DNA from: a virus
Lineage: Duplodnaviria; Heunggongvirae; Uroviricota; Caudoviricetes
IMG/VR virus record: IMGVR_UViG_2718218361_000004
Length of the DNA stretch: 38,014 nucleotides
Strand: one strand, 5' to 3'
Position 1 is the first letter of the stretch, and the number at the start of each line of letters is the position of its first letter. Positions 2,856 to 38,014 of this stretch are shown in pieces. The notes beneath the pieces are model-generated. The model was not told where the DNA came from and searched no databases. It was given only the letters and a program-made list of their open reading frames with translations. A program made the position numbers and the translations under genes.

Positions 2856-3074
2856 TCAAAGAGAGAGCGCCACCTGTCCTGATTTCATTGGATGCGGCTG
2901 AACCGGATTTGACTCTTTTGGCGTTGCAATCGAACGAACAAAAGTTTCATGGGTAACAAAAGTATGGCTGCAGTTAATGTTCTGGCACTGGTTGTAACGC
3001 TCTTTGGTCAATGAAGATACCTGAAAACTGCTGCGAGTATGGGCGGCACTTCCACACAGTGGGCAAATCATCAT
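2856..3074 (-). CDS. ogr: Ogr/Delta-family zinc-finger late transcription activator
   Basis: 72-aa product from the ATG at 3074 with C-x2-C...C-x4-C (MMICPLCGSAAH...YNQCQNINCSHTF) and a GGAG Shine-Dalgarno upstream; same position as P2 ogr after D. Confidence 0.85.
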   Translation of the reverse strand: MMICPLCGSAAHTRSSFQVSSLTKERYNQCQNINCSHTFVTHETFVRSIATPKESNPVQPHPMKSGQVALSL

Positions 3075-3164
3075 TTTTCGAGTTCTCCCCATTTTTGCTA
3101 AATTCACAATAATGATACCGCATTATTCCATTTTGCAAACTTAAAAGTTCTCCATTGCGAAGAA

Positions 3165-4747: not shown

Positions 4748-7700
4748 GCGTCGTATCCCCCCTGATCGCTGTAGTTACTCCTGGCTTTTGCCTTCAGCCT
4801 GCGTTCACGTTCATCAAGCTGGCGTGCCACCTCCCGCGCAATATCCTGCGCACTTTGTCCTGGCTGCGTCTGAATGATGATCTGCGTCGGTGCCTCAATC
4901 CGGTGAACGGGCGGCACAGTGGCTGCACGACTCACCATCGCTTCGCCGCCTTTCGCGGGAAGTGCCAAAGGATGCAACGGTGGAAGCTCTGCAGGCGCGG
5001 CAGCAACGCCCATCATTCCGGCAACAACGGCAGCCAGTGCAGCTGTATTTCTCCGGCTGGTCACATTTGCCGGGCCGTTAACAATTTCCGGCCCGTTTTC
5101 ACCGACGATGCCAAACTGCCCGCGCGGGATATAGCCGCCGCTGTCATACATCCCCGCAAAGCCATATCCCCATGACGGAAAATCACCCGATGGCATCATC
5201 ACTTTACCGTCTGCATTCACCGTCGCAGGTTGCTGACGCGTCACGCTTTCCGGTAGTTTTGCCTTTGCGGCCTCTTTACTGACAATGCCGAGTTTCTCCA
5301 GCAACCAGGAAACGCCTGATTTCAGGGAGTCCAGCGGATGCATGACCATATTCAGCCCTTCCGCCAGTGCCTCCCCGAATCGTCGCCCCATTGCCGCTGC
5401 GCTCTGCAGTTCGGCAGAGGTCGACTTAACAGGCGTCAGCAGATCAGTAAACCAGCCCCACAGCGCCTGTACTTTGTCGCCAATCCACTGGAACACGGGC
5501 TTAAGCGGTTCGAATGCTGCACTGACGGGACCTGCCGCCACTTTGAATCCTTCCACCACACCAGCGAGAAATGCGGTGATGGGTTGCCAGTATTTCCAGA
5601 CAACCAGCGCCACGCCCGCCAGTGCAGTAACCACAAGACCTATCGGACTGAGCAGAGCACCTAACAGACCAGATATGGCATACAGGGCAACGCGCAGCAT
5701 CGCCAGTGGACCAGATGCCAGTACTCGCAGCACCGTACCTGCGGCGGTCAGTCCACCGCGCAGTACTGCCAGAGGATTCATAAACATCACAGCAACCGCA
5801 CGTAAACCGGATAATCCAGACCGCAAAAGTGCAACTGGCGCACCTGCTACAGTTTTCAGGACATTTCCCGTCAGTGATGCCGTGCGGCGCAAAGACGACA
5901 ACGGCGCAGTAAGTAAACCTGCGGCGTTGCCCGATGAAGCAAGCCCGCGTCGCAGCAGTGCCAGTGGTGCGCCAGCCAACCAGGACAACGCGTTGCTGGT
6001 TCGGGTTACTGCTGCCGTAACGGAAGGTAACGTTTTGATACCCAGCACAGAGAATCCCAGACGGATGACTGCCAGCGGCCCCAGCACTGCAGCCAGCGCC
6101 ACCGCTAAGGTGCCGAGGCCCACGGTAACGGCAGCCACCACAGCGGCTACTTTCATCAGAGTGCCCGTCAGTTCCGGGTTAGCTTCCACCCAGCGACGCA
6201 ACGCCCCCGTGACGCTTTTCACCGTGTACAGAATATCCATCAGCGGCTGGCGCAGCGTTTCGCCCAGGCTGCTGAAGGTATTCTGCGCTCCGGTTTTAAC
6301 CAGCAACCACTGAGCAGAAAGTGAGTCCTTGTTGATGTCGGATTCTTTCTGCATGGAACCGAGCGCATCATTGCCCGCTGTCAGTTTTAGCTGGCGCTGT
6401 AGTTCCGGCAGGTTGTTTGCCAGTTTCGCCGCGTCATCGCCAAACTCTTTACCAAACAACATGGTCATGGCAGACAGACGCTTGTCCTGCGGCAGTGCGT
6501 TCACCTTCTCCAGCACGCGCTGGATGGTTCCCATCGCATCCTTCGTCATCTGCTTTTCAATCACTTCAGGATTGAGTTTCAGCAGATTCATCCCTTCAAA
6601 AAAACTCTTGCTTTGCATGGTGGCAATGGACAATTCACGCACCATCGCGTTTGCTGCACTGGCTGCAACCTCCGGCGCAGCGCCCAGTGTCAGGAAGGTG
6701 GAACCCAGCGCCGCCGCTTTACGATAATCGAGACGGTCAGCCACACCGCCCAGGCGTTGCATCACATCAATGATGTCCGCCCCTTTCGACATGGCGTTAT
6801 CATCCAGATAGTTCAGCGCATCACCGAGCTGTTCAATATTGCGGGTAGGTATTTTGTAGAGCTGGGCGATTTTCCCCAGACTTTCTGACAGTTCATCCGC
6901 TGGCAGCTCAAAGGCTGTTGCCGCCTTTGCCGCCGTGCTGGCGAAGGCCAGCAGGTCACGTTTCTGGTCTTCCCAACTGTCGTCAGGGTTTGCAACGTTC
7001 ATACGCGCACCACCTTCAACCAGTGCAGCGAAGTCCACCGCACCGTTTTCCATCGGCAACTGTTCGCTGGCAGCTTTGATGGCATCCTGCATTTCATAAA
7101 AACGTGCAGTACGGTTGCCATTATCGTCACGCAGACCATTGACCTGCTTTGCCACACCTTTCATGGCATCTTCCATGCTGGTATAGCTTTTTACTGCCGC
7201 CATCACTGGCGTCCCCATTGCCAGCCCTGCAGCCGTGGTGGTGGCTCCGGCTCCTGCGATGCGATCGCGCACCTCCAGCGAACGGGCATAACTGGCACGC
7301 GCTGCATTCATCCTGCGCTGAGCTTCCCCCAGTCGCTTCAGCCGCGCCTCCTGTTTCGAAAGTTCCTGGTTATAACGTGATGTTTCACGGGCTAAACGGG
7401 CAGTTGCTCCCGCATCATCTTTCGCAGAAATTCCCGCCCGGTACAGTTCAGCACGCACAAGCGCCGTTTGCTTCTGCAAATATTTTTGTTGTTCTTCCAG
7501 GCGTTGGACTGCCAGCGTTTGCCGACCTAAAGCCACAAGATGCCTTTGTGATGGTTGCTCCATCGCCTCCAGCTCAGAGCTAAGCAAATTAGCCTTCTGT
7601 CTGGCATAGTTCAGCCTGTCGCCTAACTTCTTGTTATCAGCCTGCAGCTTGCGAAATTTTTCCAGGCTGTTACCCGCCTGATTGAGTTGCTTTAATGCGT

Positions 7701-7821
7701 CACGGGAGTTTCTGATTGCGCCAGCCAGCTCTTTCGAACTGGCCTGTGCAGCACGGAATGGGCGGGTGAGTTTGTCAACCGCATTAAGAATGACCTGCAG
7801 GCGCAGGTTGTTATCACTCAT
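4744..7821 (-). CDS. tail tape measure protein gpT
   Basis: 1025-aa Ala/Gly-rich ORF with coiled-coil N-terminal half and hydrophobic repeats, immediately downstream of E/E'. Confidence 0.88.
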   Translation of the reverse strand: MSDNNLRLQVILNAVDKLTRPFRAAQASSKELAGAIRNSRDALKQLNQAGNSLEKFRKLQADNKKLGDRLNYARQKANLLSSELEAMEQPSQRHLVALGRQTLAVQRLEEQQKYLQKQTALVRAELYRAGISAKDDAGATARLARETSRYNQELSKQEARLKRLGEAQRRMNAARASYARSLEVRDRIAGAGATTTAAGLAMGTPVMAAVKSYTSMEDAMKGVAKQVNGLRDDNGNRTARFYEMQDAIKAASEQLPMENGAVDFAALVEGGARMNVANPDDSWEDQKRDLLAFASTAAKAATAFELPADELSESLGKIAQLYKIPTRNIEQLGDALNYLDDNAMSKGADIIDVMQRLGGVADRLDYRKAAALGSTFLTLGAAPEVAASAANAMVRELSIATMQSKSFFEGMNLLKLNPEVIEKQMTKDAMGTIQRVLEKVNALPQDKRLSAMTMLFGKEFGDDAAKLANNLPELQRQLKLTAGNDALGSMQKESDINKDSLSAQWLLVKTGAQNTFSSLGETLRQPLMDILYTVKSVTGALRRWVEANPELTGTLMKVAAVVAAVTVGLGTLAVALAAVLGPLAVIRLGFSVLGIKTLPSVTAAVTRTSNALSWLAGAPLALLRRGLASSGNAAGLLTAPLSSLRRTASLTGNVLKTVAGAPVALLRSGLSGLRAVAVMFMNPLAVLRGGLTAAGTVLRVLASGPLAMLRVALYAISGLLGALLSPIGLVVTALAGVALVVWKYWQPITAFLAGVVEGFKVAAGPVSAAFEPLKPVFQWIGDKVQALWGWFTDLLTPVKSTSAELQSAAAMGRRFGEALAEGLNMVMHPLDSLKSGVSWLLEKLGIVSKEAAKAKLPESVTRQQPATVNADGKVMMPSGDFPSWGYGFAGMYDSGGYIPRGQFGIVGENGPEIVNGPANVTSRRNTAALAAVVAGMMGVAAAPAELPPLHPLALPAKGGEAMVSRAATVPPVHRIEAPTQIIIQTQPGQSAQDIAREVARQLDERERRLKAKARSNYSDQGGYDA

Positions 7822-8250
7822 CGTTGGCCCCGCATCTCTGGATCGCTTTATACCGCCATTCCAGCACTTCGGTCAGCGGCATAACGTCAGTAACGGATGG
7901 CGGCCAGTGAAAAATGGTGGCGATATCTGCCACCAGATCGTCAACCGTCAGGCTGTCGGTAAACCGGCAAGCACCGACTTCTTCAACAAAAAAGTGACAA
8001 CCTCAACCGACATGGCTGTGAGATCTGCCGGGTCCATCTCTGCGATTTCCTGTGCAGTCAGTGCCGGACTGGAGATGCGGGGGATCACGGTCATCATCGC
8101 GTTCACATCCATATCCATAATGGCCTGCAGGCGTGTGCCGCGCAGCGCACCAGACTGCGGTTTACGCAACACAATTTCGGTAATTTCTGTTTTACCGCGC
8201 ATGATGGGGGTATCCAGTTGAATGGTCTTTTCAGTCTGTTTATCGCTCAT
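7814..8250 (-). CDS. gpE+E' fusion made by programmed -1 frameshift at TTTTTTG (minus-strand 7987-7993)
   Basis: The -1 frame stays open from the slippery site to a TGA at 7814-7816 that overlaps the T start codon (ATG 7819-7821). This gives about 146 aa, comparable to P2 E+E'. Confidence 0.65.
7948..8250 (-). CDS. tail assembly chaperone gpE
   Basis: 100-aa ORF between FII and T; ends ...EVVTFLLKKSVLAGLPTA with the slippery heptamer T TTT TTG in frame. Confidence 0.8.
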   Translation of the reverse strand: MSDKQTEKTIQLDTPIMRGKTEITEIVLRKPQSGALRGTRLQAIMDMDVNAMMTVIPRISSPALTAQEIAEMDPADLTAMSVEVVTFLLKKSVLAGLPTA

Positions 8251-8304
8251 TTTGTTGTCCTGTAAATTAGGTTCTGGCGCGGCATTCCGCGCCGTTCAGA
8301 TACA

Positions 8305-8820
8305 TCAGAGGCCGAGGGCGTTGCGGTGCGCTTCCATCAGGTCCACACCGTCCACAATTTCCACCATGTTGATAAGGTCCACTTCATAGAGCACCTCACC
8401 ATTGATGGTCAGCTTCGCGTAGCTGTTGGTACTGGTCACTTTGGTGGTGTTGCTTTCGCCCGTCTTCCACTCGCCGGAATCCACTTCTTTGTGACGTCCA
8501 CGCACGACAAGCTCCACGGCCTGCACTTCCCCGGTATCGTCACGCTGGATAGAGCCGGTAAAGCGCAGCTGGATGCCATCCACCGTGGATTTGCCCATCT
8601 GCTTAAACAGCAGCAGTTCAGTACCACCAATGGAAAATTCTGTATCCAGTGCACTGTCATCCAGTCCCAGATCCACATCCACCGCCCCCGGCATACCGCC
8701 GCCGCGATACTTCTCATATTTGCGGGTGAATTTCGGCAGCGTCAGCGACTCAACGATCCCCTGCCAGTTGTTCCCGTCGTTAAACAAGTTCAGATGTTTT
8801 AATTTACGTGGTAAAGCCAT
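8305..8820 (-). CDS. tail tube protein gpFII
   Basis: 171-aa ORF downstream of FI, matching P2 FII in size and order. Confidence 0.85.
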   Translation of the reverse strand: MALPRKLKHLNLFNDGNNWQGIVESLTLPKFTRKYEKYRGGGMPGAVDVDLGLDDSALDTEFSIGGTELLLFKQMGKSTVDGIQLRFTGSIQRDDTGEVQAVELVVRGRHKEVDSGEWKTGESNTTKVTSTNSYAKLTINGEVLYEVDLINMVEIVDGVDLMEAHRNALGL

Positions 8821-8829
8821 GTTGTCCCC

Positions 8830-10002
8830 TTACGCGCTGACCTGGCTGGCGAAATTCACCAGGTACTGATCGGTGATGCGCTGGCGCAGCATCAGATTTT
8901 CAAGTGGCGGCACTGGCGTGTAGTCATAGTCGATGGTGAGTTTTCCGGCTTTCAGCGTGTCTTTGTCGTTCACCGACTCATCCAGCCAGCAATCACCACC
9001 AATGAGATAGCCCTGACTGACCAGGCTGCGCATTTTGGCGCGGATACCTTCGATAATGTCGCGGGCCAGCGACGGGTTAAGCGGTTTATCCACCGCCCAC
9101 ATGTGTGCTTCTGCCATCGTGTCCATCAGCACCTGCGCCGTGCGGGTGTAGTTTTCGAAGGCAAAGAGCGGGTCATCACTCAGGCTGCGGGAACCCCAGA
9201 AGCGGAAACCGTCTTTACGCACAAGCGTGGTGACGTCGTTCTGGTTAAGCAGTCCCGCATCGGTTGCCGGGTCCTGCAGATCCCAGAACACATCAGCAGA
9301 AATTCCGGTGACACCGTTCACGCCCACGTTGGACAGGCTTTTGTGCCATCCGGTCTGCTCGTCAATTTTGGCGCGCAGACCAAGCGCACGGGCGGTGGCA
9401 TATGCCGTTGCTTCGGCATTCAGCACCGTGTCCCAGCCAGTAAAGTCGGGCCAGATCAGCATCCCTTCGCGCTGGCTGAAGTTTTCGCGGTAAGTGATCG
9501 CCTCCTGCACTGTCTTGCAGCCATACGCTGACAGGTAAGCAAACCCACGCAGGCTTTGCGCCACGCTCAGCAACTCAGTCGCAACGGCTTTGTTATCGTG
9601 ACCAGGTACGCCGAGAATGCGCGGTTTAACGCCGAGCTGTGTCTGGGCAGATAACAGGGCTTTCATGCCTGTTTTTTTACCTTCAGCAGTCACTGCGCCG
9701 ATGATATTGGTCGTGGTTTCTTCTTCCGTTTCCCCCTGCGGCACACGCACAACAACGGTCACGGGTTTTGCCTGGTCAGCGATGGCATCCAGCGAACGGG
9801 CCAGCGTGCCGGACTCACCCGCTTTACCGCTGGCAGTCAGCACATCAGTGATCAGCACGGGTTTATTAAGAGGAAACATTTTTGCATCGGCATCATCGCC
9901 CGTGCAGACCATACCCACGATGGCGGTGCTCACCGTGGTAATGGATCGGGTGCCTTCGTTGACTTCAACAACGCGCACCCCGTGGTGGTAATCCTGAGCC
10001 AT
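8830..10002 (-). CDS. contractile tail sheath protein gpFI
   Basis: 390-aa ORF at the head of the FI-FII-E-T-U-D operon. Confidence 0.88.
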
Positions 10003-15954: not shown

Positions 15955-17007
15955 TCATTCAAAATTAATAATGTCGGAAAATATATCCTGCATTAAACAA
16001 GAAATATCAATAAGAGTTTTTTCCTTAATAGGATCAGAGATCTCCAAGGACTTTATCACGAACAATATTCGTTCAGCTGCTGGTAAATAGTGAGATGGAT
16101 CAGACGTTTCAATTGCCGAAAAAAATATAGCTATTCCAGCAATCGCAAGAATCATCAGAATACCTTCACCTTCACATATAATGGACGCAATCCTAATCCC
16201 CCATTTGTCAGCCTCCTTCTCAACCTCTGATTCAACTAAATCAGGCTGCTGATGATTCATCATGGCATGAGAATATTCATGAGCGGCTACGAATAACTCA
16301 CAGCCAAAGACCATATTATATATAATCTTTTGCCCTACAGGACAGAAGTTAATTATCGATGTATAAGCAAGTTCACCACGTACATTGTAATTCTTAAAAA
16401 AATCCCTCCATTCGTTTAAGTCAATCTTGCTTTGTAATAAAGCGCTTCTATTCTTCTCACTACTCAAATATTTTTCCCACTCTGACCGCCACTCTTTTTC
16501 ACTACTACCTTGCAGAAGAGTATTAGGATAACTGCTAACAAACAAACTAATTACACCATGAATAAATTGAAAAATCCCAGACTCAAAAATTGTGAAAACC
16601 TTTGACTTTCCGTCTAGGCATTTAACTGGCGCGGCAAGTGCACTAACTCTGCCGGTTGGAGCACAACAAAACCCACCATAGTTTTGGTGATCAAAAGGAA
16701 ATATCTTTGCTACTAATTCAACCTTACTCATCAAGCGAGATGCAATGCTATAACTCACACGATCATCATAGATTGTTGGAAGAGTAACTACACCTTGAAT
16801 ATTGTTTGATAACTCTTCAATACAATCAGAAGGTAAATTATCCATTTTATTACGCACATAAGAAAAACCCTCATCACTATTTAATGACTGAGCCAACTGA
16901 TCCTCTTTATATACCTGAGTGCCTAGACTATTCTTTATAATATACTCTTCAATATATCTTTCTAGTTTTTTATAATCATCATTATATTCAGACATTAATT
17001 TAATCAT
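15955..17007 (-). CDS. AT-rich cargo protein with C-terminal HExxH metallopeptidase-like motif (ImmA/IrrE-like pattern)
   Basis: 350-aa ORF in a visibly AT-rich island between V and S. Carries HEYSHAMMNH followed by E-x-E-K-E-A-D-K-W and a hydrophobic stretch ILMILAIAGIAIFF; the N-terminal ~250 aa are unrecognised. Confidence 0.6.
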   Translation of the reverse strand: MIKLMSEYNDDYKKLERYIEEYIIKNSLGTQVYKEDQLAQSLNSDEGFSYVRNKMDNLPSDCIEELSNNIQGVVTLPTIYDDRVSYSIASRLMSKVELVAKIFPFDHQNYGGFCCAPTGRVSALAAPVKCLDGKSKVFTIFESGIFQFIHGVISLFVSSYPNTLLQGSSEKEWRSEWEKYLSSEKNRSALLQSKIDLNEWRDFFKNYNVRGELAYTSIINFCPVGQKIIYNMVFGCELFVAAHEYSHAMMNHQQPDLVESEVEKEADKWGIRIASIICEGEGILMILAIAGIAIFFSAIETSDPSHYLPAAERILFVIKSLEISDPIKEKTLIDISCLMQDIFSDIINFE

Positions 17008-25570: not shown

Positions 25571-26266
25571 TTAAAATTTAGCAAGCTCCATATAAGAAAT
25601 AGCATCATTAAAGACCGACACATGTTCTTCAGGAATTATTGCCGAGGCTCCACTAGTTAGTTCAAAGCTAAATTTAGAGTCATGATATAGCCCCCCAACT
25701 TTTATTTTATCGAGTTTAAAATCATTATCCAAAACAAATTTTTTCAAATCATTTAAAGCATCTCCACTAGAATTCAGCTCTAAACACGCCCTTGTTTTAT
25801 CAGTAACAGGAACATTTGAAACTTTCACCTTTGAGATGGCGAAGACTTTGACTCCAAACTCCTCCCTAATTATTTTCATAAAAGCCTTGAGATCTACCGT
25901 CAAGTTTCCATAGGCAACATTTACCCCTTCACCTTTTGACAAGAAATCAATAAAAGACTTAACTGTCTTCGGAGGATTATAAAAAGTCAACAAACATAAT
26001 TTATTACTTAATGTTTGGATAGAAAAACCAATCTGTTCAAAAACAATCCTTTCGAACTCTAAAATATCACCAAATGGATCAGAAACTGGCTCCAACATTA
26101 TAGTTTTTTTATTAAAAGTCGCAGATATTCCATTGTGAATAGTTTCAAACTTAGTAAAACCAGCACCAATAGCATCAGAATAAGGGGTGTTTTTGATAAA
26201 ATCAAAGATCGCTTCAGAACTGGTTCTGATCTTTAATCTCATCCACTTTAATCTTAACTGTGACAT
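25571..26266 (-). CDS. cargo operon gene C, hypothetical protein
   Basis: 231 aa from the ATG at 26266 with AAGGAG 5 nt upstream; AT-rich; no recognisable motif by eye. Confidence 0.7.
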   Translation of the reverse strand: MSQLRLKWMRLKIRTSSEAIFDFIKNTPYSDAIGAGFTKFETIHNGISATFNKKTIMLEPVSDPFGDILEFERIVFEQIGFSIQTLSNKLCLLTFYNPPKTVKSFIDFLSKGEGVNVAYGNLTVDLKAFMKIIREEFGVKVFAISKVKVSNVPVTDKTRACLELNSSGDALNDLKKFVLDNDFKLDKIKVGGLYHDSKFSFELTSGASAIIPEEHVSVFNDAISYMELAKF

Positions 26267-26285
26267 ATCCACTCCTTATGATGAA

Positions 26286-27350
26286 TTAGCTAATTTCCAT
26301 TATAATAGAATAAGCTCTATTTTCAATTAATTTATTAAATCTATCGGTTTCTCTAGCTGAAAGCTTTTGAGGTTTACTGAAATATTGACCGTTAGACTTA
26401 TATTTTTTCACTCCTTTTACTAAATATGAAAAATTAGTACAGTTTAGTGGATCTCCGAATTGAGCTTCGAGTTCATAAATATCTGGGTCTGCTAGTTTCT
26501 CTTTAACCTTCCATTTTATTTTCCAGATATAAAAGCCCCTATCATAAAGATCACTAAGTTCATCAGATTTAAGAACTCCCTCTCCTTTCAGAGATGCTTT
26601 TGACACATGAACTCCAGTTTCAGTATTTCCCTCTTCTGCTTCTATTGTTTCAGGTTTTGGATGATATACATAAGCATCCGTAACATCGTCTAATTCATAT
26701 CCATCTAGGCTACGGATTAATTTATCGAAAAACAGTGTCCTAACATCTGCGGAGCTATTATGAGCAAGAGTAATTTCGTTTAATTTTAAATCAAGATTAC
26801 TGTCATTATCTTGTTCACTCTGAATCGAAATTATATGCCCGAGGAGGAGATCTTCATAATCTTTGAGATTCTCGTTATCGGGACGACGGATGCTATAACC
26901 TTTATCAATAGGCTCGATTTCAATTAAAGCTTCTTTATTTACAGCCTGCTTAAAATCGCTTTTACTATAATTGGTCGATAGATATCTTATATCTATAAGA
27001 ACTCGAGAACCATCAATAATAATTTTACAATAATCATCCTGAGCAGTTATTTCTTTTTTTAACTTCTCTGCTGCCACTATGATATCGTCCTTAGTGACAC
27101 TGGATTCAATTCTTACACATGTATTTTTTTCAGCTCTTGTCTGACCTCCGAGTAATGTTGCTATCTTCTGATGTTCATAATAATCATGAGTCATCCGAGA
27201 GTAGTTTTTGGCTAGATCTTTTCTAGGGGTTTTTTTACAAATAATAGTACCTCTTTCCAAGAAAAGATCCTGTATTTCATTTAATGTAATCTGCTTTTGA
27301 TTCAAAGCATCACATAAAGCCTTGTCAGTTACACTATGAATATTTTTCAT
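26286..27350 (-). CDS. cargo operon gene B, hypothetical acidic protein
   Basis: 354 aa from the ATG at 27350 with a GGGAG Shine-Dalgarno; its ATG overlaps the stop of gene A (ATGA). Confidence 0.7.
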   Translation of the reverse strand: MKNIHSVTDKALCDALNQKQITLNEIQDLFLERGTIICKKTPRKDLAKNYSRMTHDYYEHQKIATLLGGQTRAEKNTCVRIESSVTKDDIIVAAEKLKKEITAQDDYCKIIIDGSRVLIDIRYLSTNYSKSDFKQAVNKEALIEIEPIDKGYSIRRPDNENLKDYEDLLLGHIISIQSEQDNDSNLDLKLNEITLAHNSSADVRTLFFDKLIRSLDGYELDDVTDAYVYHPKPETIEAEEGNTETGVHVSKASLKGEGVLKSDELSDLYDRGFYIWKIKWKVKEKLADPDIYELEAQFGDPLNCTNFSYLVKGVKKYKSNGQYFSKPQKLSARETDRFNKLIENRAYSIIMEIS

Positions 27351-28411
27351 TTCGGCTCCCAAGAAATAACCTCAGAAGAAAAGAATTCTTTTACAGTAGA
27401 GACAACTTTGACATCCAGATCTTCAAGTCTCTTTTTAGCCTCTTCATCCAGTCCATACTCATGAACATACTTTTCGATCCCACGCTGAAAATGCGACATA
27501 ACTCTATTATCTTTCTCACGATACGCCAATCTTATTCTAATTTTATTTATACCATCTAAAATTTGATAATTAGAAAGCAAGTCTAGCAAATAAAAGAATT
27601 CATTATCGCTATTACCTTTTCTATTGTAATATATAACAAATCCCTCTGGATAAACCATTTCCTCAATACCTTTAGCCCTATTGAATTTATAAACAGGACC
27701 ATGTTTAATAATCATAAATGGTGATAACAAAACTTCAATAGTTGCAGGAAGGTATTTTTCAGTTACAGCAACCTTATGGAAAATAAGTTGAGGATAATAG
27801 AATCCATAATCCTCATCTGGAAATTCTTTTTTTGCAATTAAGTCATTCATATCATTCGTTACTGCCAACATATAATTAATAAGAAATGGATCAATTATAT
27901 GAATTTGCTGACCAGCACATAACGGAATCTTTTCTAAGTTTACAGCCTTATCTCTCCTTCCTTTAGTAGGTTTAGGAGGATTAAAGAAATCATAAAAATC
28001 ATGTTGCAATTGATTATCATGATTAAAAACAAATAATAAACCTCGAACTTCGAAATCAATTTGAGAAAAGTTATATTTTTCTGACCATTCCTGGCTATAT
28101 CGAGCACAATCAATTGTTTTTGCTAAAGACTCTAATGCAGACTCTATCTTTGTTGCATTAATAGAACCAGCCTTATAACTTTTCAAATCAGTATTTAAAT
28201 AAATAATTTTATTTAAATATGGATCTTTATAACTAAATACCACATCCACTGGGTGTGTGTGCTTTTGTTTTTTACCTTCAGGCTTATGTTTTGTTTCATT
28301 ATCACAAGAGAAATCTTGGTCACAGGGGCCATGCTGTTGCCACTTAAAACGACTCATAAGATCGTTAGAAATGCGTTTTGCTAAGTCTTCAATAGGGCCA
28401 TTCTCTGCCAT
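27347..28411 (-). CDS. cargo operon gene A, hypothetical protein
   Basis: 354 aa with AAGGA Shine-Dalgarno. The N-terminal region has a possible PD-(D/E)xK-like arrangement (PVDVVF…NTDLKSYK), which is an inference only. Confidence 0.7.
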   Translation of the reverse strand: MAENGPIEDLAKRISNDLMSRFKWQQHGPCDQDFSCDNETKHKPEGKKQKHTHPVDVVFSYKDPYLNKIIYLNTDLKSYKAGSINATKIESALESLAKTIDCARYSQEWSEKYNFSQIDFEVRGLLFVFNHDNQLQHDFYDFFNPPKPTKGRRDKAVNLEKIPLCAGQQIHIIDPFLINYMLAVTNDMNDLIAKKEFPDEDYGFYYPQLIFHKVAVTEKYLPATIEVLLSPFMIIKHGPVYKFNRAKGIEEMVYPEGFVIYYNRKGNSDNEFFYLLDLLSNYQILDGINKIRIRLAYREKDNRVMSHFQRGIEKYVHEYGLDEEAKKRLEDLDVKVVSTVKEFFSSEVISWEPK

Positions 28412-29318: not shown

Positions 29319-31733
29319 TTAATACAGATCCCGCCACTTATCATCTTCCTGCAAACGCTGGTTCCGATAGAAGATACGCAGGCCTGCTCCTGACGGAATA
29401 CTGCCGCCGCGAAGGAGTAAACCGACCTCTTTCTCGCTGCCATCAAATCCTCTGGACTTCAGCTCATAGACGAGCTGCTGTCGCTGATGGTCTGTAATTC
29501 GCTGTTTGTAGTCTTTACGCCGTTTCGGTTTCACCAGGCGTAACCTTGCAGCCAGTTCCCGGCGCTCTTTTTTGCTCATACTGTGCAGGTAATCGTGCAA
29601 CTCCTTGTCATCCATGCGGGTAATGTCCGTTCTGGTATCCCCATAAGCTGATTTGTCTTTCCCTTGTTGGTTCAAATTTTCAGCAAGGGGACAGTTATTG
29701 CCACGAGTCCAAGGGGCGCAAGCGCCCTGGTCGGCTGCCGCCTCCTGAACGTCAACGGCCTTACGAACCATTTTCCACTTCACTGCATGAGTGCAGATCT
29801 TGCCCTCTGCAATGGGTGACCAGATGCCATAAATACGAATACCGTGATCGCCATAGGCGGTTGGCTCTTCGTTGATTTCATAAGCGGTTCTGATGAGGTG
29901 ATATTTGCGGGGAACCAGTACGCCGCCCTGCTTCATGATGTAGGTGGCAAAACAACCAGCATCAGCAGCAGCCAGAATGGCATCAAGGCGCGGGTTATCC
30001 AGTACCGGCGCACCTGCTTTTTTGTCACCCTGTTGCCTTGCCGCCTGACCAGCCAGCAAGCGAAGTTCACGGTAAGCCTGACGTCCCGGAATACCAAAGA
30101 AGCGGAATTGCTGAACACGATGCAGAGACGCCCAGGCATTAACGTATTCAGCGTTATCACGCAGGGATTTACCCGTTTCCTTGCTGATCTCGCCAGCCAG
30201 ACCACGCCCGTCAATGTTCTTACTGATGTATTTCGCGATGTAGCTTGTCGGCGTTCCTTTGCGCGGGTTTATCAGCTCAGATTTAAAGCGTGGACCAGTG
30301 TTATTACCCAGTTCCTCGCGGTCTTCACGGATGGCAAACTTACGCAACAATGCAGTAATGGCGCGGCGGTCTTTTTTGCGCATGAAACACAACAGGTGCC
30401 AGTGAACTGTACCGTCATGATGCGGCTCAGCCACCCGCACGCCATACCAGCGCAACCCGGCTTTGTGCATCGCCTTACGAAATGCAGCAAACATGCCGAC
30501 CAGATAATCGCTGCTTTGTCTTACCGTCGCATTTGTCCAGGTTGGGTTTGGTCTGCCGTTATTGAGCGTGGAATGGAAACGTGACGGACAGGTAATGGTG
30601 TAGAAAACGGCGCAGTCACCGCGCATTTCCGCGATAAGCTCCAGACCTTTAACACAGGCCATCATCTCATTGCGGCGGTGCGCCGGGTTGCTGCTGCTGG
30701 CGTTTACCACGTCTTCCATATCCAGCGTGTCGCCCTCTTCGTTCACCAGTTCATGAGAACGGAAAAACTCCAGTGACTTGCGGCGCTGCTCACGTTTATG
30801 CATCACGGCTTCATAGCTGACATAGGGAGATGCTTTTTTGCTGACCAGGCAGATAGCACGCAACTGCTCTTCCCGCCATTCGCAACGCATTTTCCATAAT
30901 TTCCGGTACCACCAGTCGGCGCACAACATACGCGCCAGCGAACCCGGAATGAGTTCATAGGGCACGGGTTTACGGCGGTTTCTTTTCCGGCGGAGTTGCT
31001 CAAACGCAGGCGGGATGACATCCAGACGCAGGGTTTCCGCTGCCACCTTTTCCCATGTCTTGCGGATTTCTTCTGGCTTAACGTCATCGGTGGCATACAA
31101 ATCACCACAAGCTGCATCAAGGCACATGCTCATATGCGCAGCGACAAGGGTAGACAGGCGTTTCACCTGATCCTGACTCATTTCAGGCAGAATCAGCAGG
31201 CCGTCCAGCCCTACATGGCTTGCCATAAAACGAAAAGATGCAGATAGCTGGCTGTCGCGTACATGCTCCAGTCGTTCCAGACATGGCTTAATCGTCTCAC
31301 GTAAATAGCGGGAATAAGCCTTTGGCCTGCCCAGGCTGCTGAAGTATTCAATACGTTGCATCAGCGGCTTGCTGATATGGGAGGGCTGGGCGCTGACGTC
31401 TGCCAGAATGACCATGTCCGGGTTAAAACGCTGCTGCTCATGCGCCAACTTTGCCCGGCTAATGAGCTTATCCTGCTCTATTTCGCGTTGGACAGGATCA
31501 CGGGATTCATTAAAGAAATAACGCTCCCAGACCTGATCACTCAGTGCCTCGCGGCGCAGTTGTTCCTGCTCGTTATCGGCAGCGTACAGAGTGATCAGGT
31601 TTGAAAGCGCAGAAACCGGCGCAACTTCCGCCGGGTCCAGATAAGGGTTAATGGCCTTTTTCGGGCTGTTCCATGAGAACGATGCGGCAGCCTCGTTAAA
31701 GCCGCAGCAGTTGCTCATATCGGCATGGCTCAT
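29319..31733 (-). CDS. replication initiation protein gpA (rolling-circle nickase family)
   Basis: 804-aa ORF at the P2 A position downstream of the early operon. Confidence 0.85.
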
Positions 31734-33874: not shown

Positions 33875-34384
33875 TCACAGCAAACCGAATGAAGCACCGA
33901 GGCCAGTCACGGTATCAACTGCACTCGCCATCGCAGGATTAGCCTGTAAACGGGCCTGCAATGAAACAGCCGCCAGCGCCATCAGTCGTGTTACAGAATT
34001 AATGCTGCTGATCGCATCGCGACGGCCTGCACTGGTTTTTACATCGCCAGAAACCGCACCTGCAGCAACACGCCCGATCTCTGCGGTTGCACTCATGACG
34101 TAATGTGGCAGTCTCTCTTTTGCCACCTCATTTACCGGTATACATGGCAGGCAGTGAATCTGAGCCAGAAATCCATCAACCAGTGTTGGGTCTTCAGTGA
34201 GATCGGTTAACTGCCAGATATCTGACGCAGTAAGTTGGTGTGGTTGTTCCGGGTTGAGCTTGTTACGCAAGGTTTGAACGTTCATACCTGCGCGCTCTGC
34301 CAGCTTCGCCATGTTGTGTCGTAGGGCGAAGGCCCGGCAGGCTTCATTGAAATGGGGATGTTTTGAAATGCGATAGTCAAACAT
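33875..34384 (-). CDS. CII-like regulatory protein (186 CII family)
   Basis: 169 aa (186 CII is 169 aa as I recall) with HTH AKLAERAGMNVQTLRNKL, downstream of the apl/cox-like gene. Confidence 0.75.
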   Translation of the reverse strand: MFDYRISKHPHFNEACRAFALRHNMAKLAERAGMNVQTLRNKLNPEQPHQLTASDIWQLTDLTEDPTLVDGFLAQIHCLPCIPVNEVAKERLPHYVMSATAEIGRVAAGAVSGDVKTSAGRRDAISSINSVTRLMALAAVSLQARLQANPAMASAVDTVTGLGASFGLL

Positions 34385-34416
34385 AGTCAGTTGCTCCGTG
34401 AAGTCTCAAAATGGAA

Positions 34417-34638
34417 CTAGTTGATAGTCACGTTGCAATCAGAGAGGGCATCGATCGTCATCGCAGCAATGTTAATCATCACTTTTTCACGCTTTTTATC
34501 CTTACGTAGGCGATGACGAGGCAAACGCCCATCTGCAAGCATGTCGTTAATTGTGTCGATAGATAAGCCAGTGAGTTCACTATATCTTTCTATAGTAACG
34601 TGGGGGGTGATGAGAGTGATTGAAATGTTAGGTCTCAT
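34417..34638 (-). CDS. Apl/Cox-like excisionase and early-promoter regulator
   Basis: Small basic HTH protein, first gene of the lytic transcript, divergent from cI; ATG at 34638. Confidence 0.65.
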   Translation of the reverse strand: MRPNISITLITPHVTIERYSELTGLSIDTINDMLADGRLPRHRLRKDKKREKVMINIAAMTIDALSDCNVTIN

Positions 34639-34763
34639 GATGCAACATTCCTCTTTTAGCAATGATTAATCAGGATGAATACTGATCGTTTGTATTATGT
34701 GAACACTGCAAACATACGATCACATCATGAAATCGTCAAGGTAAAAGTTCACTTGGAGTGACC
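34639..34763. promoter_or_regulatory. immunity switch region (lytic/lysogenic promoters and operators)
   Basis: 125-bp AT-rich region between divergent apl/cox and cI; individual promoter elements not resolved. Confidence 0.5.
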
Positions 34764-35327
34764 ATGAATTTGGAAAAAGGCGGTCGTGGGGCCATAGAGC
34801 GCATGGTTGAAGCCTATGGTTTCAAGACAAGACAAGCTTTGTGTGATCATTTGGGCATTTCTAAAAGCACCTTAGCCACGCGCTATATGCGTGATTCATT
34901 CCCGGCAGAATGGGTAATCCAATGTGCACTTGAAACCGGCACGTCGCTAGAGTGGCTAACTACTGGGCAAGGTTCAAAAGAAAGTTCACAAAAAGAAAAC
35001 ACAAAAGAGATCGAAAGGAAGATTTTATCAAGCGGAAAACTACTTCCTGATGGTTACTACATTTTCGACAACAACTTTTTGCCTGAAAAACTAAAAAAAC
35101 CTTTTGTTGTGATCGATGGCGCATCAGAGTTTATCTGTGATTCGGATTATGAGGATGTACGTGATGGTAAGTGGATCGTTGATATTGATGGCGAGGTTGC
35201 TATCAGGAATCTGACAAGACTGCCGGGACGTCGCCTAAATGTCGATGGCGGCAGCAGTTCCTTTGAATGCAAAATAGATGAAATTGATATCATAGGAAAA
35301 ATTAGAAGCGCGATCGTCAATTATTAA
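34764..35327 (+). CDS. immunity repressor CI (186 CI-like)
   Basis: 187 aa from the ATG at 34764 (GGAG 5 nt upstream); N-terminal [25 protein letters not shown]. Confidence 0.8.
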
Positions 35328-35350
35328 AATTAATGTATAAGGAAATAAAT

Positions 35351-35536
35351 ATGTTTTATAAATCTATTCATATCCTACTTATTTGTTTATTTATTACTTT
35401 ACCTATTACAAGTTTTGCAAAAAATTATCCATGTTCTGGTAAGAAAGGGGGAGTTTCACATTGTACATCTGATGGGAAGTTCGTTTGCAATGATGGAACG
35501 CCAAGCAAGTCAAAGAAAATATGTTCTAAAAACTAA
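35351..35536 (+). CDS. small secreted cysteine-rich protein
   Basis: 61 aa from the ATG at 35351 (AAGGAA Shine-Dalgarno); signal-peptide-like [23 protein letters not shown], then a ~38-aa Lys-rich part with 4 Cys; starts 23 nt after the cI stop. Confidence 0.55.
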
Positions 35537-35547
35537 GGTTGCTTCAT

Positions 35548-36879
35548 ATGAATAATGATATGACTTTTGAAAACAGAGATGAGTATAATAGAAAAATCAT
35601 TGCTGAAAAAATAATAAGCTTACTCGAGTCCCCCTTAAAAATATCCCCTATTGTTATCGATGGGGACTGGGGTACCGGTAAAACCGAATTTTCAAAAAAA
35701 TTAGCGGCATTGATTGAAAAAAATGAATCTGGGCATAAAGTAGTATATATTGATGCATTTACTGAAGATCATAATGATGCTCCCATACTTACTATAATGG
35801 CTGCAATAGTTGCATTATATCCAGAGAGTGAAAAGAAGGAATTAATATCAAAGGCATTACCAGCATTGAGATTTGGACTTAAAACTGTACTCAAAGCTGG
35901 CGCTGGGTGGATTTTAAAACAAAATGCAGATGATATTGCGGATGAATTCGAAGATGCTATTAAAGATGCGGCTAACTCAGCTATAGATGGTACTGTAGAA
36001 GCACTGCTTGATGATCATATTGAAGCAAAGAAACATTTGCTTGCTCTCAAGGAAGTACTTGCTGAACTAACTAGCGAAAATAAAATAACAATTATCATTG
36101 ACGAACTTGACCGTTGTAAACCAAGCTTTGCCATCTCTATCATCGAAAATATAAAACATGTTTTTGACACTGAAAATCTTAACTTCTTGTTAGTTGCTAA
36201 CATCTCACAATTGAAAGCATCAATAAATCATATTTACGGTGCAGGTGTTGACTCAGAAAGATATCTTGATAAATTTATAAAATTCACTTACAGCCTGCCA
36301 GTGACTTTCACTGAAAACAATTACGATAAAATTTTGGCTTCGAACTCTCATTTTAGAATGCTATGTAACGAGTCTGAAAGACTAAAAGAAATTGGAGAAA
36401 GTAGTATTCATATAGTTCAAAAATTTATCGAACTAAAAGGCTTGTCGCTACGGGAAGTTGAAACCTTATCAAGATATCTAGAAATTTATCAAATTTTATC
36501 TCAAAATAAAATCAGCAATAAATTTATACCAGGCTATTGCTGTTATCGAACCCTTGCAGTAATTCTTTATTCGTTTGGTCGTGAACTGGCCCTTAACTAC
36601 GTAGAAGATAAAATAGATGCACAATTAATAATCAATTTCTTCGGTGTTAATAGACTCCCATATCAGACAGATCAATATAACAACAACATCTACTATTATG
36701 CATTATTTGGTATAACTTATAAATATATGCCAGAAGGTTCTCCTTTACTTCCTTCTGAAAACGATGAAAAAAACAGATGGGCTGAAATAAGTGATTATCA
36801 TATTTTAAAAGGAAATGCAGGTGTAGAAGACCCTGTTAGAATATTCAAAAACACCTTAAAAGTTTTCTTGCTCCAATGA
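35548..36879 (+). CDS. KAP-family P-loop NTPase
   Basis: Walker A GDWGTGKT and KAP-type Walker B IIIDELDRC; no obvious transmembrane insert; 11 nt after the small ORF; AT-rich. Confidence 0.8.
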   Translation: MNNDMTFENRDEYNRKIIAEKIISLLESPLKISPIVIDGDWGTGKTEFSKKLAALIEKNESGHKVVYIDAFTEDHNDAPILTIMAAIVALYPESEKKELISKALPALRFGLKTVLKAGAGWILKQNADDIADEFEDAIKDAANSAIDGTVEALLDDHIEAKKHLLALKEVLAELTSENKITIIIDELDRCKPSFAISIIENIKHVFDTENLNFLLVANISQLKASINHIYGAGVDSERYLDKFIKFTYSLPVTFTENNYDKILASNSHFRMLCNESERLKEIGESSIHIVQKFIELKGLSLREVETLSRYLEIYQILSQNKISNKFIPGYCCYRTLAVILYSFGRELALNYVEDKIDAQLIINFFGVNRLPYQTDQYNNNIYYYALFGITYKYMPEGSPLLPSENDEKNRWAEISDYHILKGNAGVEDPVRIFKNTLKVFLLQ

Positions 36880-36936
36880 AATGTTTAATTGAAGATCTTT
36901 AAACATTGACCACTGTTCAAACATACAGTTAAATTT

Positions 36937-36961
36937 AGTCCTCAGACATGAGGACTTTTTT
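36937..36961 (+). terminator. rho-independent terminator after the KAP gene that overlaps the int ribosome-binding site
   Basis: AGTCCTCA-gaca-TGAGGACT followed by TTTTTT and then the int ATG at 36962; the only Shine-Dalgarno-like sequence for int (GAGGA) is in the 3' stem. Confidence 0.65.
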
Positions 36962-38014
36962 ATGGCAGTACGAAAACTCAACACAGGTAAATGGATTTGT
37001 GAATGCTACCCCGCCGGGCGCAATGGGCGGCGTGTGCGTAAGCAGTTTGCAACTAAGGGTGAAGCATTGGCTTTTGAGCGTCACACGATGGAAGAAACCG
37101 AAGCAAAACCCTGGCTGGGTGAATCAGTGGATCGTCGAACACTGAAAGACGTGGTTGAGCTATGGTTCAAACTACATGGTAAATCTCTGACGGCTGGGCA
37201 GCATGTCTATGACAAATTGCTGTTGATGGTTGACGCTCTGGGAAATCCCATTGCAACCGATCTCACCTCTAAAATGTTTGCCCACTATCGAGATAAACGC
37301 CTGACAGGAGAGATCTACTTCAGCGAAAAATGGAAGAAAGGAGCAAGCCCGGTCACCGTTAACCTGGAGCAAAGCTATCTAAGTAGTGTTTTTAGCGAAC
37401 TATCCCGCCTGGGCGAATGGTCGTATCCGAACCCACTGGAGAACATGCGAAAATTCACCATCGCAGAAAAAGAGATGGCATGGCTTACCCATGAACAGAT
37501 TGTTGAATTGCTGGCTGATTGCAAACGTCAGGACCCAATTCTGGCACTGGTAGTCAAGATATGCTTAAGCACAGGCGCACGCTGGCGAGAAGCAATAAAT
37601 CTTACCCGTTCACAGGTGACTAAATACCGAATTACCTTTGTCAGAACGAAGGGGAAGAAAAACAGAAGCATTCCCATCAGTAAAGAGCTTTACGAAGAGA
37701 TTATGGCACTTGATGGGTTCAATTTCTTTACAGACTGCTATTTTCAATTTTTATCCGTGATGGAAAAAACGTCTATCGTGCTCCCTCGCGGTCAACTGAC
37801 ACACGTTCTGCGTCATACGTTTGCGGCGCATTTTATGATGTCGGGTGGAAACATCCTGGCCTTACAAAAAATTCTCGGGCATCACGATATAAAAATGACG
37901 ATGCGTTACGCACATCTGGCACCGGATCATCTGGAAACGGCGCTCCGTTTCAACCCTCTGGCAACGCTGCCAAGTGGCGACAAAGTGGCGGCAGCGGTTG
38001 GCATTACCCCGTAA
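36962..38014 (+). CDS. int: tyrosine integrase (P2 Int family)
   Basis: N-terminus MAVRKLNTGKW… resembles P2 Int (MAIKKLDDGRY…); C-terminal HxxR…Y catalytic region (VLRHTFA…RYAHL); stop codon is the last 3 nt of the window. Confidence 0.9.
   Translation: MAVRKLNTGKWICECYPAGRNGRRVRKQFATKGEALAFERHTMEETEAKPWLGESVDRRTLKDVVELWFKLHGKSLTAGQHVYDKLLLMVDALGNPIATDLTSKMFAHYRDKRLTGEIYFSEKWKKGASPVTVNLEQSYLSSVFSELSRLGEWSYPNPLENMRKFTIAEKEMAWLTHEQIVELLADCKRQDPILALVVKICLSTGARWREAINLTRSQVTKYRITFVRTKGKKNRSIPISKELYEEIMALDGFNFFTDCYFQFLSVMEKTSIVLPRGQLTHVLRHTFAAHFMMSGGNILALQKILGHHDIKMTMRYAHLAPDHLETALRFNPLATLPSGDKVAAAVGITP

Follow-up and report, generated by a model that had tools for sequence, protein, structure and literature searches.

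What does a P-loop NTPase of the KAP family do between the repressor and integrase genes of a 186-like prophage, and does the small peptide encoded directly before it belong to the same system? The locus lies in IMG/VR record IMGVR_UViG_2718218361_000004, a Caudoviricetes sequence of 38,014 nucleotides (nt) that was analysed at its full length (hereafter the window), and in which the lysogeny end of a 186-like prophage, of the P2 family, takes up 34.4 to 38.0 kb. Here cI, an open reading frame (ORF) for a peptide of 61 amino acids (aa), a 443-aa ORF for the NTPase (hereafter KAP) and int follow one another in one orientation (+), with gaps of 23 and 11 nt after cI and the peptide ORF, respectively (Table 1). 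An initial annotation, made from the sequence alone, had taken peptide and NTPase for a pair placed in the immunity operon for superinfection exclusion, abortive infection or defence. We find that KAP belongs to an already catalogued candidate family and sits in a hotspot of P2-family prophages, and that the reading of the two genes as a pair fails; we put at roughly 0.6 the probability that KAP is a lysogen-expressed, single-gene anti-phage protein, acting by superinfection exclusion or abortive infection.

KAP scores 174.6 bits against Pfam KAP_NTPase (PF07693; cut-off 20), with residues 16-315 aligned to positions 2-290 of the 293-position profile, and carries a Walker A motif GDWGTGKT at residues 39-46 and a Walker B motif IIIDELDRC at residues 182-190. 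Across the 57 homologues that we aligned with the query to assess conservation, 42 columns are invariant, among them G39, W41, G42, G44, K45 and D185-C190. The highest mean over a 19-residue Kyte-Doolittle window is 1.1, and we accordingly recognise no transmembrane (TM) segment; TM helices are typical of many but not all KAP NTPases, and this protein, like PifA, does without them. The KAP signatures and the missing TM insert of the initial annotation are thereby borne out. Between the Walker motifs stands an insert (residues 93-175) modelled as amphipathic helices, two in the AlphaFold2 (AF2) model, which as a whole has a mean predicted local distance difference test score (pLDDT) of 78 and comprises a P-loop core, the 80-residue helical insert and an all-helical C-terminal half. 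The core retains 60-67% identity to the query among the homologues and residues 321-443 only 21%, whilst the best conserved stretch is the first insert helix (residues 93-125, net charge +4), directly followed by an acidic stretch of net charge -10.

Domain and structure searches, proposed as a check with the initial annotation, place the peptide in the YdcA family (see below) and KAP, over its full length, in PADLOC family PDC-S20 (PDLC04956; E 1.3e-171, 570 bits, residues 1-441 against positions 1-447 of 450), with RdrA of the RADAR system as the nearest solved fold at a sequence identity of 14-17%. The PADLOC models, which we used for defence-family matches alongside Pfam, NCBIfam and phrog for other profiles, give only PDC-S20, PifA, QatA and mad8 at E ≤ 1, and the families that PADLOC labels 'PDC' are candidates only; a KAP profile run against PDB sequences returned no match.

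A role in defence is the most likely one for KAP because of this full-length match to PDC-S20 and because the same slot carries other defence-related cargo elsewhere among the prophages sampled: a full-length homologue of P2 Old in one (PADLOC 5.6e-232), PD-Lambda-1/DUF4041 genes in others (2e-120), whose products belong to a class that Vassallo et al. validated (PMC9519451), and a pair consisting of a HEC-01 ATPase and a DUF4276 gene. To the right of the cargo, the backbone (from ~36870), together with int, is present in 1134 of the 5426 complete E. coli genomes on which all prevalence counts given here are based. What stands of the initial proposal is thus defence or exclusion as the most likely task of KAP alone; its two-gene form does not stand.

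Hotspots of this kind have precedents. A cI-int hotspot was described in Vibrio K139-like relatives of P2 by Rousset et al. 2022 (PMC9122126), and the P2 hotspots named in two E. coli studies are only gpA-gpQ and fun (PMC9122126, PMC9519451); a literature search found no paper describing a 186-like cI-int hotspot in E. coli, and the E. coli slot therefore extends a known idea. It resembles P2 gpA-gpQ (old/tin), P2 fun and the K139 cI-int site in being a fixed variable slot of a P2-family prophage that takes up alternative defence genes, and differs from them in that it is known here from genome annotation and PADLOC matches. If KAP protects, a third P2-family defence hotspot, with its cargo driven by the repressor promoter, would lie in the cI-int interval of 186-like prophages of E. 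coli, and PDC-S20, a family found in prophages across Enterobacterales, would gain experimental standing; if the assignment is true, the slot would also be a convenient site to mine for lysogen-expressed defence genes.

An accessory role unconnected with phage attack, be it in prophage induction or maintenance, in host fitness or virulence, or in defence against plasmids or satellites, appears unlikely to us. Such a role would sit easily with a KAP protein that has no effector domain, with the proposal, cited in PMC12632615, that KAP NTPases are general regulators of protein-complex assembly, and with the presence of lysogenic-conversion genes in lysogeny operons; it fits less well with the remaining cargo of the slot, which consists of validated or candidate defence genes, or with the independent listing of the family as a defence candidate by PADLOC. 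The rare and patchy occurrence of KAP, the query allele being present in 9/5426 genomes and any homologue detectable at the DNA level in about 107/5426, speaks against it as well, as does the hypervariable C-terminus, a pattern typical of arms-race genes.

For the anti-phage reading, the fold, the pattern of conservation and the behaviour of relatives (PifA, EF_KAP, RdrA) suggest how the protein might work. PifA, QatA and EF_KAP, all KAP or KAP-like NTPases, are defence proteins (PMC12632615, PMC13001434); mutation of Walker B abolishes defence by EF_KAP (PMC12632615), PifA, which is without TM helices, aborts T7 infection by depolarising the membrane and letting nucleotides leak out (PMC13001434), and RdrA forms nucleotide-dependent rings according to the titles of its structure entries. 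In a lysogen, KAP would be transcribed from the pL promoter together with cI and the peptide gene, with most transcripts ending at the hairpin before int. The conserved P-loop core and the basic-then-acidic helical insert would together form an NTP-driven oligomerising switch, the hypervariable C-terminal helical domain would recognise a protein of the infecting phage, and activation would block infection, roughly as PifA does with T7. As to the effector step, our best guess, and a doubtful one, is the conserved insert itself: the basic helix 93-125 and the acidic stretch lie where other KAP proteins carry TM helices, and might act through NTP-driven membrane attack or PifA-like nucleotide loss. 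Equally tentative is a more ambitious combination, in which KAP would be a complete sensor-plus-effector of a new mechanistic type whose C-terminus sets phage specificity and, separately, the cI-coupled peptide would be an unrecognised periplasmic factor for superinfection exclusion or lysogenic conversion. Should KAP protect, it would offer a minimal KAP NTPase, with no TM helices or fused effector, from which to learn how this ATPase class blocks infection.

Several observations weigh against the anti-phage reading. Domain and fold searches recognised no effector domain in KAP, so the killing or blocking step set out above is guesswork, and a literature search found neither an experiment on PDC-S20 or on this KAP nor a paper using the term PDC-S20. 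The AF2 model is moderately confident (predicted template modelling score 0.50), with residues 110-154 below a pLDDT of 50. H-NS may keep cargo of such AT-rich composition silent, and some of the hexamers that resemble promoters (13 counted, 10.5 expected) might act as such inside AT-rich DNA.

Comparison with individual defence systems leaves PDC-S20 as the only one to which KAP can be assigned. The two agree in the full-length hidden Markov model match, in single-gene organisation in every context examined and in having no obligate partner, and differ in nothing structural, PDC-S20 being a computational candidate. With PifA of the F plasmid KAP shares the P-loop core (PADLOC PifA, 3e-15 over residues 8-252), the absence of TM helices (PMC13001434) and the status of a single protein on a mobile element; identity with PifA was rejected, as residues 8-252 align only to positions 14-255 of a 720-position profile, the C-terminal two thirds are unrelated and the replicon differs. 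RdrA was likewise rejected, being a protein of ~800 aa that works with the RdrB deaminase, of which there is no gene in the neighbourhood here, and sharing only the low identity given above. QatA is also a P-loop NTPase of defence with distant similarity to the KAP core (E 2.5e-11 to 2e-10), but the match reaches 43 bits against a cut-off of 600, and cI, the peptide gene and int stand in place of qatBCD. Tmn (YobI family), again the P-loop NTPase of a defence system, has two TM helices inside its P-loop domain whereas KAP has none, and no PADLOC tmn match was obtained at E ≤ 1.

The anatomy of the locus supports the placement of both genes in the cI lysogenic transcription unit, as the initial annotation had it. 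Upstream of cI, a homologue of pL aligns column for column with the 186 promoter (TTGCGA-N17-CATGAT); it was assigned by homology alone, a consensus promoter scan having missed it, and would start the lysogenic transcript. Since this homologue lies upstream, the intergenic gaps leave no room for a promoter and no terminator is encountered before the end of KAP, cI, peptide and KAP would form one lysogenic unit; the annotation of phage 186 gives its lysogenic operon as cI-int-orf69. Within 34300-38014, the + strand has a single terminator-like site, the hairpin at 36937-36956 with its T-run, in agreement with the initial annotation, which had also given both gap lengths correctly. A candidate internal promoter at 35560-35589 was discarded, as it is situated past the start codon of KAP and sites of this type are no more frequent than in shuffled sequence. 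The arrangement resembles that of lambda rexAB in that accessory genes follow the repressor immediately on its own strand, ahead of the first terminator; it differs in that there is no sequence relationship, and KAP is one gene whereas rexAB is a sensor/channel pair.

The hairpin before int (-14.9 kcal/mol, z = -3.8) is followed by TTTTTT and abuts the int start codon, and in nine relatives covarying changes preserve its stem (TCCTCA/TGAGGA, CCCTC/GAGGG, GCTCTC/GGAGGGC, CCCTT/AAGGG). Its probable effect is to terminate or attenuate the cI-peptide-KAP transcript and to restrain int expression, and its enclosure of the int Shine-Dalgarno sequence suggests combined termination and translational control of int. 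The AT-rich inverted repeat at the start of the backbone likewise shows compensating changes (ATGTATG...CATACAT) in five of the compared prophage and phage loci, which are L-numbered throughout (L003, L004, L011, L012 and L013). Just upstream of the int hairpin lies a near-invariant block, CATTGAC(C)ACTG..ACAGT (36902-36930), that includes a -35-like TTGACC. A search of Rfam with 34300-38014 gave a single sub-threshold chance match only.

A second type of KAP locus shows what the cI-int slot contributes. KAP genes at a lambdoid site are preceded by a spacer of 350 nt that contains a conserved -10-like TAGTAT box, and they have a GC-rich hairpin terminator of their own, whereas those in the cI-int slot have neither; the slot would therefore supply transcription. 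That KAP is instead silent cargo, intact yet unexpressed in lysogens through H-NS silencing or polarity, with its operon position of no consequence, is quite improbable: the 33% GC of the gene in a 50% GC prophage and the weak -10 element of pL (CAACAT) would allow it, but the gene is under strong purifying selection (dN/dS, the ratio of nonsynonymous to synonymous substitution rates, ~0.11 against homologues of 80-88% identity), holds the 42 invariant columns noted above, possesses a good Shine-Dalgarno sequence at tight spacing, and shares its transcript with cI, which must be expressed for repression.

Whether peptide and KAP form a pair is decided by their distribution and by the insertion boundaries. 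BLASTN homology to the peptide-only prophages L004 and L006 ends at 35534, two bases before the peptide stop, and resumes at 36870, in the last KAP codons, from which it follows that KAP is a single-gene insertion of 1335 bp replacing ~105 nt, and the junction falls exactly between the two genes. A peptide-only spacer after cI, lacking KAP, occurs in 590/5426 genomes, and the peptide gene stands 16 nt past cI, again without KAP, in the 186-like prophages L004, L005, L006, L102, L104 and L106; one such peptide-only prophage is the P2-like remnant of the BL21-derived strain C41(DE3). In our survey of 80 IMG/VR loci carrying KAP relatives, 27 lie in cI-int slots, with the peptide in 10 and absent from 17, and the other 53 lie outside the slot, none with an adjacent YdcA-family gene; about 45 of these abut, and converge with, lambdoid Q antiterminator genes and occupy the Q-lysis moron site. 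The neighbours of KAP differ accordingly with context, being the peptide, a 160-aa ORF, nothing or a lambdoid Q gene: in E. coli L012 the order is cI-KAP-int with a gap of 31 nt (KAP 54% identical, gapless), a Yersinia locus reads cI, the 160-aa ORF, KAP, int, and a Salmonella relative lies in a primase-helicase island. A search of the module by megablast against a collection of phage DNA gave no match, and the locus context was therefore drawn from the E. coli genomes and IMG/VR.

These comparisons lead us to regard the peptide as a common, old resident of the prophage lineage at this site that is unrelated to KAP. The slot first held the peptide gene, and a bare, AT-rich KAP ORF with its Shine-Dalgarno sequence, bringing neither promoter nor terminator, was inserted later. 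The initial annotation had allowed that the two genes might prove to be a conserved P2/186 housekeeping module; this applies to the peptide, a conserved resident, and not to KAP. A two-gene system, in which the secreted YdcA-like peptide might, for instance, act in the periplasm as a sensor or an exclusion factor with the cytoplasmic NTPase coupled to it, is very improbable, since its support (genes 11 nt apart on one transcript, joint presence in 10 of the 27 slot loci, and retention of the pair across cI types and species, as in L003 with 71% and Enterobacter L011 with 80% KAP identity) is met by a peptide without KAP in 590 genomes and in Haemophilus phage HP2, a KAP without peptide in 17/27 slot loci and 53/53 others, one KAP clade (55-56% identity) mixing loci with the peptide and without it (L034 vs L029-L033), an insertion junction exactly between the genes, and a KAP protein lacking a TM segment with which to reach the periplasm.

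The KAP relatives at the lambdoid site (43-48% identity; L016-L018 and ~45 IMG/VR loci within L047-L099) lie between Q and the lysis genes, each with its own -10-like box and GC hairpin. The KAP family is thus also found in another type of prophage, as an autonomous moron.

The peptide is of interest in its own right. It matches NCBIfam PRK10040 (4e-25) and phrog_6000 (9e-26), and an identical protein (P0121) carries Pfam PF27300 (YdcA) and is named 'YdcA family protein' by the Prokaryotic Genome Annotation Pipeline (PGAP); our own Pfam profile scan assigned no family, PF27300 being seen only in precomputed annotations. Its score against the NCBIfam model NF007463 (PRK10040), 87.3 bits, falls short of the equivalog cut-off of 93 bits, and the family matches together with this score make it a member of the YdcA family and not the K-12 equivalog. 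It resembles E. coli K-12 YdcA in family, predicted signal peptide and four cysteines, and differs in being prophage-borne and coupled to cI, besides its sub-cut-off score; chromosomal YdcA has been loosely linked to acid and 3-hydroxypropionate stress (PMC7642389), and a literature search found no paper tying YdcA to a prophage function. The N-terminus is hydrophobic (Kyte-Doolittle 2.5), with small residues at -3 and -1 and the ending S-F-A, as would fit a cleavable signal peptide. In 29 relatives the first 23 residues vary freely, yet stay hydrophobic and end in small-x-Ala, and the predicted mature part is almost invariant (dN 0.02-0.06, with dS near or at saturation), including nearly invariant cysteines at positions 28, 38, 46 and 58. 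The AF2 model (pLDDT 74) consists of a helix, which is the predicted signal peptide, and of one small beta hairpin. Judged by dN/dS values of ~0.11 against homologues of 80-88% identity, the peptide gene and the KAP gene are both real genes; it is a reasonable inference from the above that the peptide is exported, and it would then be a separate envelope protein expressed in lysogens.

By the same kind of comparison the link of the peptide to cI is old, the cI-coupled YdcA-family peptide spanning a range from Haemophilus HP2 to ~11% of E. coli genomes. In HP2 (L009, NC_003315) an unannotated 60-aa YdcA-family ORF (2920-3102) begins with an ATG that overlaps the cI stop; after it come orf1(S), whose product has a signal peptide and a tRNA_anti-like domain, and int. 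The layout is the same cI-peptide-cargo-int order as in E. coli. Phage 186 has neither the peptide nor the KAP gene, its cI stop overlapping the int start. The position of the peptide recalls that of the periplasmic Glo of phage K139, which we take to be located in the corresponding control region. A paper on the K139 control region names immunity, exclusion and integration in its title, as given in the reference list of PMC4870250. Tied to cI in this way, the YdcA-like peptide is a separate and cheaply testable candidate for lysogenic conversion. YdcA-family ORFs also occur in unrelated temperate phages, namely Moraxella Mcat17 (L019, 3492-3671, where the ORF sits among structural genes), other Mcat phages, and Acinetobacter and Pseudomonas phages, which makes the family a widespread, phage-borne and putatively secreted small protein.

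Table 1. Features of the lysogeny end of the prophage (positions in the window).
Feature	Position	Strand	Evidence or remark
CII-family gene	33875-34384	-	apl-like gene also on - strand
pL homologue	34620-34648	+	TTGAAA, 17-nt spacer, CAACAT; aligned to 186 pL
cI repressor (186 type)	34764-35327	+	Pfam Phage_CI_repr 3e-33, Phage_CI_C 6e-29
YdcA-family four-Cys small protein, 61 aa, predicted secreted	35351-35536	+	NCBIfam PRK10040, phrog_6000
Inserted block, 1335 bp	35535-36869	+	KAP gene and its Shine-Dalgarno sequence only
KAP-family P-loop NTPase, 443 aa, without TM helices	35548-36879	+	PADLOC PDC-S20
AT-rich inverted repeat ATGTTTAA...TTAAACAT	36881-36907	.	Start of backbone preceding int
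Hairpin and U-run	36937-36961	+	Directly before int ATG; 3' arm includes int Shine-Dalgarno GAGGA
Tyrosine integrase	36962-38014	+	Right border of slot; Pfam Int_N 1.7e-32, Phage_integrase 7e-22

The gene models are consistent between sources. PGAP finds the same four genes, each with an unchanged start, in E. coli genomes whose copy of the module is 99.6-100% identical; the cI ORF opens at a GTG at 34758, PGAP places the start at 34764, and the product is named 'phage repressor protein CI' in identical prophages. E. coli S21, H14 and ST131 strain 4224 are among the strains with the identical module. The peptide gene has an AAGGA Shine-Dalgarno sequence and the KAP gene an AAGG-type ribosome-binding site before its ATG. 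The description of the interval as a two-gene AT-rich module holds for gene order and composition alike, with 30% GC in the peptide gene and 33% in the KAP gene against 49.6% in the window; a repeat search of the module returned nothing beyond short AT-rich matches. The window opens with a permease gene of the host (935-2620), whose product has Asp-Al_Ex and TrkA_C domains, and rcdA stands just past int in related genomes; the prophage is integrated beside rcdA/ybjL. The same module occupies two chromosomal sites, beside rcdA or beside a copy of ompF (L001, E. coli ST131 strain 4224, 7635-9765, vs L002). The ompF copy at the second site is annotated without its N-terminus, and integration there may inactivate the OmpF porin, a phage receptor.

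Further cargo was observed at other positions of this and related prophages. At 25571-28411 (- strand, ~32% GC), three genes matching PADLOC Hp3 (1e-10), Hp2 (1.6e-39) and Hp1 (1.2e-64) occupy the gpA-gpQ hotspot, flanked by the gene for the replication endonuclease (29319-31733) and by the packaging genes; to go by the names, these models appear to be the three-gene gpA-gpQ system of PMC9122126. A third AT-rich island, of 36% GC, at 15955-17007 (- strand) holds a 350-aa ORF with no Pfam family and a weak match to PADLOC peptidase_U41 (7e-8), and may be the cargo of another P2-type hotspot. In L103 (E. coli NT1N28, 1062-1759) an IS1A element lies between cI and a PD-Lambda-1-like gene in the cI-int slot, and probably uncouples this cargo from the repressor transcript. 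Finally, the last ~45 nt of int (37970-38014) recur downstream in L004 (5373-5414), L006 (4545-4589), L011 (8679-8718) and L012 (7775-7818), where extra genes, among them DUF2971 (PADLOC PDC-S31), putAbiC, a pair with Panacea domains and small ORFs without assignment, are inserted between int and the host junction; the repeat marks a further cargo site at the prophage end, which is empty in the window.

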